This document shows positions 30,159 through 36,962 of a DNA stretch of 64,000 nucleotides, one piece after another. Location: positions 32,001 to 96,000 of the forward strand of contig JAVJSW010000012.1 in NCBI GenBank assembly GCA_040219255.1, written 5' to 3'. Source of the stretch: Sumerlaeia bacterium (GTDB lineage: Bacteria > Sumerlaeota > Sumerlaeia > SLMS01 > JAHLLQ01). The notes under the pieces are model-generated. The model was not told where the DNA came from and did not search any database. It saw only the letters and a program-made list of their open reading frames with translations. Position numbers and translations under genes: made by a program. Positions within the stretch are counted from its first letter, which is position 1; each line of letters starts with the position of its first letter.

Positions 30159-31937
30159 TCAGTACAGCGCCCAGCTCCGCACCGCCGTCGTGTTGTTGTA
30201 GGTGACCGACACGTCGGGCGACGGTGGCACGACTTCCGTGTTGCCGGCCGAATCGGTGCCGATGGTGTAGAATTCATAGGTGCCATCGCCGCCGTGCGCG
30301 GCGGTGTCGAAGGGGATGGGCGAGCTGGTGTAGGTTCCCGCGCTCTGGAAAACGACGCCCTTCGAGATGCTCTTGCTGAAGAACAGTTCCACGCTTTCCA
30401 ACTCCGAGAACACGTCGCTTCCGGCCCAGACGACGTCGATCACCGGGTCTTTCTGGTTCACCACGCCGGTGGGACTGACGACGGAGGTGACGGGGCCGCT
30501 GGTATCGAGGACGATGGTGGCGGAGGTGATATCGGACAGGGCCGAGTCTGTTCCGAGGCGGGCGTAAAGCGTCACCTGACCCTCGGCTTGCTCGGTGATG
30601 GTCGCCAGGGCGTTGGAGCAACTGGAGCAGGAGACGGTCGTCGAGGTGGCGAAGTTGTCTTCACTGACGTAAAGCGAGTCGCTGGGGCCGTCTTCCACGC
30701 CGGAGAGGGTGACTTTGACGGTGGTGCTGTTGGTGTAGGTGGTGACCTGGTCGCTCGAGTTCAGGTCCGCCAGGGTGATGCCGCCGAGAATGGGCGAGAG
30801 GTTTTCGTAGAACGAAACACGCCCGCCGCTATAGGAAGTGGAAAGGACCTCGGGATCGCCGTCACCGTCCAGGTCGGCGGCGGCGACGGATGTCACCTGG
30901 GTGCCATCGCCGGTGAAGTTGATGGTGTTGATCGGGCCGAAGTCGCCTTTGCCGTCGAGGTTCTCGAACCAGGCGACACGGTCGTCGAGGAAACTGGCGG
31001 TGACCAGGTCGAGGTCGCCGTCGTTGTCGATGTCGGCGAAGTCGAGATCTTGAGGGAACTGGGTGACGGTGGTGATGGTGATGGCGCCGGTGAAGGTTCC
31101 GTCGCCGTCGAGGTTTTCGTACCATTGGAAGCGATTGTCCGAGGCGGAGCCGGAGACGACATCCATGTCGCCGTCGCCATCGATGTCGCCGGCTCGTGCG
31201 ACCCAGGCGCCCGATGCGGTGGAGTTGAGGACTTGGGGGTTCCAGAACGAGCCGTCGCCGTTGACATTTTGGTAGATGACCACTTCATCGTCGGAGAAGC
31301 CGGTGGCGAGAACGTCGACGTCACCGTCGCCGTCGAAATCGGCCGCATCGACGTAGTTGGCGCCGCCAAGCGCGCCGTCGATCAGCGTACCTGGGGCGAA
31401 GTTACCGTTTCCGTCGGTGTTTTCGAACCACTTCACGTTGCTGTTGTCGCTCGAGGCGCCGACAATGTCCAAGTCGTTGTCTCCATCGATATCGGCGGCG
31501 GTAAATTTAAAGATCGCGTCGCCGGTCATGCCGATGGGTTTTGAAGTCGAGAAATCGGCCGCACCGGTCTGATTTTCGTACCACACGAAGAGATCGTTCA
31601 CGTCGGCGGCGGCCACAACGTCCAGGTCTCCGTCTCCGTCGATGTCGAAAGCGCCGGCCGCGTTGGCTCCCTCGGCCGTTCCGGAGATCGTCATTTTGCC
31701 GCTGAAGGTGCCCTGGCCATCCAGGTTTTCGAACCACACCACGAGGTCGTCTCCCGAGGCGGCGGACAGCACGTCGATGTCGCCGTCGCCGTCGAGATCG
31801 GCTCCCTCGACGGATCGACTGAAATCGGTGGTGGAGGAGATATCTTCACGAAGGGAGAAGGGTACGGAGGCGGTGGCGGGGAAATAGCCCGCCAGCACGG
31901 CGGCGGTGGCGGCGATGGTCAAATGGATACGATTCAT
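30159..31937 (-). CDS. Secreted FG-GAP/VCBS repeat beta-propeller protein with C-terminal Ig-like domains and TAVRSWALY tail
   Basis: Signal peptide; 7 repeats of (A)DxDGDGDxDxx...W(F/Y)EN; 'DSAGNTE' Ig-like domain. Confidence 0.9.
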   Translation of the reverse strand: MNRIHLTIAATAAVLAGYFPATASVPFSLREDISSTTDFSRSVEGADLDGDGDIDVLSAASGDDLVVWFENLDGQGTFSGKMTISGTAEGANAAGAFDIDGDGDLDVVAAADVNDLFVWYENQTGAADFSTSKPIGMTGDAIFKFTAADIDGDNDLDIVGASSDNSNVKWFENTDGNGNFAPGTLIDGALGGANYVDAADFDGDGDVDVLATGFSDDEVVIYQNVNGDGSFWNPQVLNSTASGAWVARAGDIDGDGDMDVVSGSASDNRFQWYENLDGDGTFTGAITITTVTQFPQDLDFADIDNDGDLDLVTASFLDDRVAWFENLDGKGDFGPINTINFTGDGTQVTSVAAADLDGDGDPEVLSTSYSGGRVSFYENLSPILGGITLADLNSSDQVTTYTNSTTVKVTLSGVEDGPSDSLYVSEDNFATSTTVSCSSCSNALATITEQAEGQVTLYARLGTDSALSDITSATIVLDTSGPVTSVVSPTGVVNQKDPVIDVVWAGSDVFSELESVELFFSKSISKGVVFQSAGTYTSSPIPFDTAAHGGDGTYEFYTIGTDSAGNTEVVPPSPDVSVTYNNTTAVRSWALY

Positions 31938-32229: not shown

Positions 32230-32259
32230 AAAACCAGACCCCGATTGTCCGGGGTCTGG
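32230..32259 (-). terminator. Rho-independent terminator after secA
   Basis: Minus strand CCAGACCCCG-GACAAT-CGGGGTCTGG-TTTT. Confidence 0.8.
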
Positions 32260-32300
32260 CGAAGGAGGTTCAGGAATGGGACCGGTTTTCCGGCGCTCGC

Positions 32301-35765
<3,465 letters not shown>

Positions 35766-35818
35766 GGTGTTCTCCTGCCGGATTCGTCCGGCGCTCTTCG
35801 TCGATTGGGGTCAGGGTT

Positions 35819-36367
35819 TCAGACAGCGGGGAGAACCGTGCGGCCGGCGGCGTCGATGGCGACGCCTTCGCGTTCGAGAAGCCAGCGCTTCATTTCCAGA
35901 CCCCCGCCGTAGTTGCCCAGCGAACCGTCGCTGCGCACCACGCGGTGGCACGGAATGAGAAGCGGGAGAGGATTGCGCGCCATCACACCGCCGATGGCCC
36001 GGCTGCCCTTGGGATTGCCGACCGCTTTGGCCAGTTGCCCGTAGGAGCGGACTTCCCCGCGGGGAATGGCGGCGCAGGCTTCGGAGACTTCACGGGCGAA
36101 GGGCGTCAGCTCGGGCCACACCATTCGTTCCCGCAAGTCTTCGAAACACCCCGAGCCATCGCAAGCCTTGGCCAGCAAATCCGCCAGCTCCAGCGATTCG
36201 CGGGTTCTTACGAACCGGAAGCGCTCGCCGGGGCGGGTGGCTTTTTCCAGCGCGGCGTTGGCTTGCCCCATGGTCAGGGGTGGCAGCCAGAGGGCCACGA
36301 TGGCTCCCTCGCGGCTGGCGACCAATCCTTCTCCGAACGGCGTCTTGAAGACGCTGCCGTCCAGCAC
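35819..36367 (-). CDS. ogt: Methylated-DNA-[protein]-cysteine S-methyltransferase
   Basis: IPRGEVRSYGQLA, RAIG, NP....PCHRVV, GNYGGG...KRWLL..EG; GTG start 4 nt after the upstream stop. Confidence 0.92.
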   Translation of the reverse strand: MLDGSVFKTPFGEGLVASREGAIVALWLPPLTMGQANAALEKATRPGERFRFVRTRESLELADLLAKACDGSGCFEDLRERMVWPELTPFAREVSEACAAIPRGEVRSYGQLAKAVGNPKGSRAIGGVMARNPLPLLIPCHRVVRSDGSLGNYGGGLEMKRWLLEREGVAIDAAGRTVLPAV

Positions 36368-36371
36368 TTTG

Positions 36372-36794
36372 TCACCTGGGATTGGGCGGACCACGGCGCT
36401 TGAGGGGCAGGTGCCCGGGTTCGAGGGGACGAACGGCGCTGGCGGCGTCGGGCGAACCCTGGGCGGCGTTGGAATGGAAATTCTGAAGGGAGAACGATTT
36501 GGGCCGCGCGTGACCGCTGAAGCAGCGGGGAAAGGGCGAGGGCGTTCGCTTCTGCGTCTCTTCGCGGGACTCGGTGGCCGCCTGCACCAGAACGGCTTCC
36601 ACGATCTTGCGCTGACGCTCGCCCATGGCGGCTCGGACTTCACCCCGCGCGTAGGGCATCCACCAGTCCGCCGCCCGGCCGGGCCCGGGTGTGACGCAGG
36701 TCGCCGCCAGCGGCAACAGCATCACCAGCACCATCGGCGGAATGCGCCGGTGTGTCGCGGAGGAGAAGCTGGTGCGCTGGTCGCTCTGTGCCAT
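36372..36794 (-). CDS. Small exported protein ending ...KRRGPPNPR (candidate ribosome-arrest peptide)
   Basis: Basic residues, hydrophobic stretch and AxA-like site (HRRIPPMVLVMLLPLAATCVTPGPGRAA); C-terminal RGPP; fills the gap upstream of ogt-secA on the same strand. Confidence 0.55.
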   Translation of the reverse strand: MAQSDQRTSFSSATHRRIPPMVLVMLLPLAATCVTPGPGRAADWWMPYARGEVRAAMGERQRKIVEAVLVQAATESREETQKRTPSPFPRCFSGHARPKSFSLQNFHSNAAQGSPDAASAVRPLEPGHLPLKRRGPPNPR

Positions 36795-36962
36795 AGGGAC
36801 CCACAAGACGGTCAGAAACCGCGTGATGTCAAAGGAAAGTGCCAGTTGCGGGCCAACCGCCAAAGACCTTCGATTCAGCCATTCCAGCTTGCCCGCTCCA
36901 ACCGTCTGCGGTTCAATCGCATTTGCCTCTCGATTTTTGAAAACCCAGGAAAGGGCTCCGCT

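Follow-up and report, generated by a model that had tools for sequence, protein, structure and literature searches.

The window, meaning the whole 64,000-nucleotide stretch of Sumerlaeia DNA analysed here, carries on its reverse strand a small leader ORF followed by ogt and secA. The leader (36372..36794 (-), 140 aa) is a candidate RGPP arrest peptide that ends in PGHLPLKRRGPPNPR, the last letters of the translation of 36372-36794 being RRGPPNPR. Its layout comprises a hydrophobic PLAA(S/T)C helix, an ERxRR helix, a variable spacer, RGPP, three residues and the stop. In an AlphaFold2 model the hydrophobic helix spans residues 20-34 (36693..36737 (-)) and could act as a signal peptide or a signal anchor. 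The sequence ERQRK (36606..36620 (-)), the local form of the conserved family element (E/D)RxRR, lies in a second helix of residues 47-82, approximately 74 residues ahead of the arrest site and modelled with a pLDDT of 78-91 over residues 51-80, and the RGPP codons 134-137 (36384..36395 (-)) are the predicted stall site. The original prediction of an ORF of about 140 residues on the secA strand with a C-terminal RGPP is borne out by these coordinates. Of the signal-like N-terminal segment that it described, the hydrophobic helix stands, but a cleavable signal is not distinguishable from a membrane anchor; the ERxRR helix, a second conserved element, had not been part of it. The leader has a GC3 of 0.82, and its frame obtains the top codon score of all six in four of six 120-nt segments (36420 to 36839) and the second-best score in the other two. 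Profile scans gave neither a Pfam match at cut-off nor an NCBIfam match, Rfam returned five weak matches with none at the family threshold, the best Atlas scores are 0.82 and below and count as leads only, and structural TM scores are all under 0.5.

The second gene, ogt (35819..36367 (-)), belongs to the O6-methylguanine-DNA methyltransferase family (PF01035, E 1.6e-33; TIGR00589) and possesses the PCHR active site. At its junction with the leader (36365..36377 (-), AGG-TGA-CAAA-GTG, 7-19 nt past the last RGPP base) the leader stop is embedded in AGGTGA, the putative ogt Shine-Dalgarno (SD) sequence, 4 nt ahead of the ogt GTG at 36367; the pairing energy of AGGTGA is -8.2 kcal/mol against a generic 12-mer anti-SD. 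A spacer of 53 nt (35766..35818 (-)), with a GCCGGA-CGAA-TCCGGC hairpin and the SD AGGAG, separates ogt from secA (32301..35765 (-), 1154 aa, identified by profile matches). Both the position of the leader stop and the 53-nt distance agree with what had been proposed. An intrinsic-terminator-like hairpin past secA, a 12-pair stem followed by a T run (32233..32260 (-)), is the probable end of the transcript.

SecA itself contains a clade-specific insert of approximately 130 aa (residues ~52-184, window positions 35211-35609 (-)) before the Walker A motif. From an N-terminal motif to Walker A there are 238-262 residues in the leader-bearing clade, compared with 109 in most other Sumerlaeota. The insert is modelled with a pLDDT of 93, resembles the small C-terminal domain of acyl-CoA synthetases (PF13193; Foldseek E 1e-7), contains an invariant HPD and RRD, and is found in all 16 leader-bearing loci described below, the SecA proteins of these genomes being only ~54-65% identical; a literature search found no report of an acyl-CoA-synthetase-like insert in SecA. 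Just past the secA terminator lies the gene for a 592-aa FG-GAP repeat protein (30159-31937 (-)) with the tail TAVRSWALY, which we take to be a possible sorting signal.

Conservation of the leader

A single-sequence homologue search with the leader returned only the leader itself (one of 38 candidates), and relatives were therefore sought through secA-anchored loci. GTDB genomes were scanned for a SecA motif written as a DNA pattern, which matched 44 of 53 in-group and none of 67 out-group SecA proteins, and this yielded 64 secA loci picked independently of the leader. In a FastTree phylogeny of SecA, from which L002, L039, L049 and L057 were omitted as too short, the window SecA falls inside a 43-row clade with nearly all rows labelled Sumerlaeota, its nearest taxon-named relatives being Candidatus Sumerlaeota, and belongs to a single clade of 19 rows with a support of 100. 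Three rows of the latter (L007, L017 and L034) come without upstream DNA, leaving 16 assessable loci including the window. Two genomes contribute two secA loci each (L016 and L042, L039 and L058), where binning or sequencing artefacts are possible, and the secA frame of L039 is interrupted.

In all 16 loci, 15 of them with ogt and one without, there is an ORF, 128-148 aa long, whose product closes with R[GA]PP and 1-7 further residues (RGPP in 14, RAPP in two), so that the conservation upstream of secA that the original prediction proposed to look for is complete within this clade. When the 64 loci were searched in all frames with a profile built from the 16 leaders, no additional member emerged (next E-value 0.36), and this holds for the 19 other Sumerlaeota loci among them whose sequence extends 600 nt or more upstream of secA. 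R[GA]PP occurs within the last 11 residues in 19 of the 982 open frames of at least 120 aa in the window and the 15 other clade loci, and 16 of these 19 are the leader and its orthologues, against a background of three in 966. The motif is not due to chance.

A profile search of 1.84 billion representatives extended the family to 55 homologues at E<=0.001, every one of which ends in R[GA]PP plus 1-7 residues; R, P and P are invariant, and the second position is G in 43 and A in 12. Since the search profile had contained the motif, the 47 representatives not identical to a query were stripped of their last 20 residues and rescored with an N-terminal-only profile, and 40 of them still scored at E<=0.001. 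Conservation in the N-terminal half centres on P28 (55 of 55), L29 (51), A30 (54) and C33 (42), and on R60 (51) and R62 (49). Outside PLAA(S/T)C, (E/D)RxRR and the arrest motif the proteins are unalignable and predicted to be disordered, in line with the low-complexity spacer described earlier for the window leader, and 87-109 residues (median 98, 63 proteins) separate the localisation segment from the motif. The codons used for R, G and P in the motif all differ from locus to locus, which places its conservation at the protein level, and dN (0.38-0.67) is lower than dS (1.08-1.42, near saturation) in four of four pairs of relatives. Judging from the freely varying motif codons and dN below dS, the leader is a translated protein under selection.

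The N-terminal segment is hydrophobic throughout the clade, with a 15-residue Kyte-Doolittle maximum of 2.1-2.7 in 16 of 16 loci and an uncharged stretch of median length 26 residues, and patterns of a cleavage site hardly exceed the background (34 of 63 leader proteins compared with 82 of 189). Two more specific signals were considered and set aside on the basis of general consensus sequences: a lipoprotein signal, given that the cysteine is present in only 42 of 55 and is followed by more hydrophobic residues, and a Tat signal, given that no conserved twin-arginine precedes the helix.

With a localisation segment, a long variable spacer and a near-terminal motif, the leader resembles the RAPP/RGPP (RQH) arrest peptides, and by analogy with them it very probably stalls its own ribosome in order to sense protein export. 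The same features could belong to a small protein, exported or membrane-bound, that works through its PLAA and ERxRR helices and keeps RGPP for reasons other than stalling. Its N-terminal half is conserved beyond that of most arrest peptides, and published work records that RAPP-like motifs by themselves are often insufficient for stalling and that most RAPP-like sequences of ordinary E. coli and B. subtilis proteins failed to stall in vitro. An invariant R-x-P-P placed 1-7 residues from the stop, behind an unalignable spacer and before secA, is nevertheless the pattern of proven arrest peptides, and the restriction of the second position to G or A also speaks against a protein that does not stall, which we regard as very improbable. 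The peptide and its conservation are firm; its regulatory output is the less settled part.

A conserved promoter element and a probably leaderless transcript

A -35-like TTGACA element lies 38 nt ahead of the leader ATG in the window (36827..36832 (-)) and is conserved in the clade: TTGAC is found 37-41 nt before an in-frame leader start in 16 of 16 loci (TTGACA in 14, TTGACT in two), while the control, 535 candidate ATGs of long ORFs, gave three occurrences at 34-42 nt. Between TTGAC and the leader start, neither an SD nor a conserved -10 was found in the 16 loci, which suggests that the transcript is probably leaderless or nearly so; a standard sigma-70 scan does not call the element in the window. 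Such a perfect -35 hexamer, set at a constant distance from the start codon and lacking a recognisable -10, may represent an unusual Sumerlaeota promoter type. Because the element is conserved while the genes farther upstream differ among loci, the leader-ogt-secA unit appears to start here. A second promoter before secA was considered and rejected, no TTGAC being present in any ogt-secA spacer; TTGAC does occur deep within ogt in two of 16 loci.

The ogt gene and its start site

The domain and active site expected of Ogt/MGMT (PF01035 and PCHR) are both present in the second gene, and PCHR is retained in 19 of 19 secA-adjacent Ogt copies examined. The gene sits between leader and secA in 15 of 16 clade loci and is absent from L021, which is nested in an eight-row SecA subclade (support 100) whose six other complete loci have ogt; this nesting indicates that ogt was lost in L021. 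L014 and L044, from another Sumerlaeota group, carry the ogt-secA pair behind an unrelated gene that immediately precedes it, and they lack a leader; L054 has ogt-secA at a point where the sequence ends shortly upstream. Different genes precede secA in the remaining Sumerlaeota groups, among them most of the Sumerlaeales-type loci (L003, L008, L011, L013, L016, L018, L024, L041 and L048), which have no leader upstream of secA and where we take the upstream genes, by eye, to be rpmF and plsX-like. The ogt tree is poorly resolved (two of 17 inner branches starred). The original prediction had offered a later insertion of ogt as one explanation of its position; this is contradicted by its presence in 15 of 16 leader loci, the nested position of the ogt-less L021 and the leaderless ogt-secA pairs of another group, from which we conclude that ogt is not a recent insertion within the leader clade. 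In L021 a RAPP leader (L021:6517-6912 (+)) has been kept 121 nt before secA, across a structured spacer, after the loss of ogt, and on this evidence the leader is tied to secA.

The start of ogt is crowded against the arrest site in every locus that has the gene. The conserved FGxG near the Ogt N-terminus lies 40-59 nt past the last RGPP base in 15 of 15 loci, and all candidate starts (ATG, GTG or TTG at or after the motif and before FGxG) have offsets of -11 to +25 nt relative to the arrest codons, again in 15 of 15. The leader stop and ogt start overlap as ATGA in five loci, the ogt SD resides in the R-G codons or in the leader tail codons, and in L027 and L045 an ATG at -1 or +1 is the sole candidate start and the R-G codons form the SD. 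A programmed frameshift or a leader-ogt fusion was rejected, the frame offset being +1 in six and +2 in nine of the 15 loci. A ribosome covers approximately 10 nt past its A-site codon, and an initiating ribosome needs approximately 20 nt ahead of the start codon. Given these sizes, the footprint of a stalled ribosome would overlap the ogt start, so initiation would be excluded during arrest and arrest should silence ogt.

This arrangement also underlies the suggestion, likewise made in the original prediction, that ogt may be the gene directly regulated. The stalled ribosome would indeed sit on the ogt start, but the gene would be blocked rather than induced. Taken as a negative switch, in which ogt is translated only on release of the stall and secA is a constitutive passenger, the idea accounts for the start at -11 to +25 nt and the SD within R-G or tail codons; the active site of Ogt is intact, and RAPP/RGPP leaders precede many non-Sec genes. 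It fits poorly with L021, which has the leader without ogt, with L014 and L044, which have ogt-secA without the leader, and with the lack of any evident reason why an exported sensor should control a DNA-repair enzyme, and we consider it decidedly unlikely that ogt is the real target.

Action of the arrest on secA

Between the arrest site and secA there are 550-695 nt in the loci with ogt, and 618 nt in the window. The label 'SecM-like' given to the leader originally therefore suits the peptide but not the switch: a ribosome stalled on the ogt start would stand 618 nt from secA, and a textbook switch cannot reach secA because ogt intervenes and would itself be blocked by that ribosome. Opening of a local hairpin at secA is impossible except in L021, the secA SD being 550-695 nt from the arrest site elsewhere, and no consistent folding relay bridges the gap in the manner of the SecM-type monitors (SecM, MifM and VemP), whose stalled ribosome opens a hairpin over the target SD.

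The reading that we favour, at a probability of roughly 0.5, is that a Sec-monitoring arrest peptide heads a leader-ogt-secA operon and acts on secA at the mRNA level, unlike SecM. One promoter, to judge from the position of TTGAC, would start the mRNA at or just before the leader start codon, and following the precedent of the family the ribosome very likely stalls at RGP/P, with the first proline predicted to be in the P-site. It is likely that the hydrophobic N-terminus engages Sec and that pull across the 87-109-residue spacer frees the stall. The stalled ribosome would hide the SD and start of ogt, keeping it off, as the geometry indicates, and once released it would read 1-7 more codons and stop at the ogt start, so that ogt is translated by coupling; if stalling occurs, this block and the coupled release are together highly probable. 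The weakest step, for which the chances are about even, is that secA escapes the ogt block and that prolonged arrest raises SecA via the whole transcript. Escape is plausible because secA has its own SD behind a spacer of 36-147 nt (16 ogt-bearing clade loci, sequence not conserved), a purine-rich SD-like stretch preceding secA in the leader-bearing loci. Three loci in which no leader was found have ogt-secA spacers of -8, 10 and 5 nt, a contrast that involves two clades only; the longer spacers fit an uncoupling of secA from ogt, since arrest would block ogt.

As to how a parked ribosome could raise secA expression, it might bar the way to Rho, as in CruR, or protect the mRNA from decay, as in ermC, and the sequence evidence selects neither. 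Operon-wide action of a stalled ribosome has precedents in both systems, as described in PMC9426467 (CruR) and PMC7509114 (ermC). With respect to Rho, approximately 550 nt of untranslated ogt could invite polarity and lower secA expression, which would be the wrong sign. A C>G bubble is located just ahead of RGPP in 15 of 16 loci and is also reported for cruR (PMC9426467); in the leader its median z against the amino-acid expectation is 0.06 for the last 35 codons and 0.84 for the last 20. A rut site was rejected, the bubble matching an Ala/Pro/Ser-rich spacer with ordinary codon use.

A second possibility gives ogt a part in the circuit. In such a double-negative relay, arrest silences ogt, and either the lost ogt translation, through RNA refolding, or the lost Ogt, as a repressor, turns secA on. 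The feedback has the right sign, and the retention of ogt in the middle of the unit (15 of 16 loci) would be accounted for. Equilibrium folding offers little encouragement: with the whole of ogt folded as untranslated, the secA ribosome-binding site (RBS) becomes more closed in six of 15 loci (by 4.2 kcal/mol in the window) and more open in two, and in a shorter folding version more open in four of 16 and more closed in three. Since neither version opens the site consistently, a relay through RNA folding between ogt and the secA RBS is unsupported, and no conserved RNA structure or intrinsic terminator was found in ogt among the clade loci. A repressor is opposed by the ordinary alkyltransferase appearance of Ogt and by the finding of no conserved operator near the promoter other than TTGAC. 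The relay is quite improbable, and the same holds for its more elaborate form, in which the acyl-CoA-synthetase-like domain of SecA would perhaps read the ERxRR helix of the leader.

A third possibility dispenses with dosage altogether. The stalled, membrane-targeted chain may hold the mRNA at the translocon, such that SecA is made beside SecYEG; any distance would then work, no switch would be needed, and ogt would be throttled as a side effect. Tethering of mRNA at the membrane by a stalled chain is a property of SecM. The uncharged stretch, at a median of 26 residues, is enough for an anchor, and the secA RBS shows no conserved regulatory structure. The ogt-less L021 points the other way in that it folds like a SecM-type switch, opening of its secA RBS costing 14.9 kcal/mol on the free RNA and 10.3 kcal/mol with the ribosome stalled, although 7 of 40 shuffles do equally well. 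In addition, characterised Sec monitors alter the level of expression, which renders tethering without dosage control unlikely. Control of secA dosage at the mRNA level is ranked first on two grounds, the link between leader and secA seen in L021 and the changes of expression brought about by characterised Sec monitors. All of the loci come from one clade, and the correlations consequently rest on one or two evolutionary events.

Relation to known arrest peptides

The closest known systems are the RQH arrest peptides (Fujiwara et al. 2024, PMC10987492), defined by a survey of co-oriented genes ahead of secA. According to that paper, the uA_RQH candidates have in common with the leader a small function-unassigned ORF, an N-terminal localisation segment, a long variable spacer and RGPP/RAPP near the stop, sequence similarity between groups is not expected, and in stalled members the P-site holds the third residue of the motif. 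Measured against the uA_RQH screen, the leader is below 300 aa and without annotated function (140 aa), carries an N-terminal secretion signal or transmembrane segment (hydrophobic maxima in 16 of 16 loci, helix 20-34) and a conserved C-terminal RAPP-like motif (16 of 16 loci, 55 of 55 representatives), and has a spacer of more than 30 residues (87-109), a length that fits the long spacers reported for secA and secDF leaders. The screen considered the gene immediately preceding secA, a position that the leader occupies only in L021, ogt intervening in the window and altogether in 15 of 16 loci. In two uA_RQH rows examined, the next start is 61-84 nt past the stop, whereas here it would be under the stalled ribosome. 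With four of five sequence characteristics, the leader may be seen as a variant of the RQH/RAPP arrest peptides that departs from them in adjacency and in the local hairpin. PMC12992588 describes RGPP as giving the most robust arrest across contexts and as the most avoided tetrapeptide in ten bacterial groups.

Other arrest peptides share less with the leader. E. coli SecM (PF06558) has in common a localisation segment with a long N-region, a near-C-terminal arrest motif and an operon with secA, and among named Atlas neighbours a SecM cluster comes closest to the leader (0.80, a lead only), but the leader matches neither the SecM profile nor FxxxxWIxxxxGIRAGP. ApdA and ApdP (RAPP) and ApcA (RAPG) have the core C-terminal motif class and layout in common with the leader (PMC7897499 and PMC10987492); they directly precede secDF2 or yidC2 in Actinobacteria and Alphaproteobacteria, and homology to the leader is not established. 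CruR (DUF2946) is similar to the leader in its ~140 aa, in a RAPP three residues from the end and in being the first of a three-gene operon, and its stalled ribosome governs the whole downstream transcript through Rho (PMC9426467). In CruR a 162-nt spacer rules out coupling, whereas the leader stop overlaps or abuts ogt. The conserved CXXC and metal-uptake genes of CruR have no counterpart, there being no conserved CXXC in the 55-member leader alignment and no Pfam match, nor does the leader show a rut signal beyond its amino-acid composition.

The original prediction had placed the leader in a lineage without a known secretion monitor, and the literature is in keeping with this. The secA candidate table of PMC10987492 (474 uA_RQH mentions) has no Sumerlaeota row, 'Sumerlae' occurs in its supplement in the genome list only (at least five genomes), and PLAASC, PLAATC and ERQRR are not among the candidates listed there. 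The text sections and a supplement term search of PMC12992588 gave no Sumerlaeota, family-motif or methyltransferase match among the listed entries. Full-text searches, in which subscription papers are thinly covered, found no report of Sumerlaeota secA or of a Sumerlaeota arrest peptide, and none that combines an arrest peptide, a leaderless transcript, secA and a methyltransferase.

The range of RAPP/RGPP leaders hence gains a phylum. According to the LudP preprint, characterised Sec/YidC monitors directly precede the gene that they regulate; they act by opening a nearby hairpin, but here the motif is kept despite an intervening ogt of 550 nt; either arrest reaches secA at a distance or the leader has another job. 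If the former is true, screens of the genes adjacent to secA, secDF and yidC would miss systems that act across an intervening gene. The loss of ogt makes L021 a natural SecM-like revertant and a control. Two of the background motif matches found among the loci, a 303-aa frame of L063 (+) ending in RRAPPASG and a 141-aa frame of L031 (+) ending in RAPPYRG, may be products of chance or further leaders.
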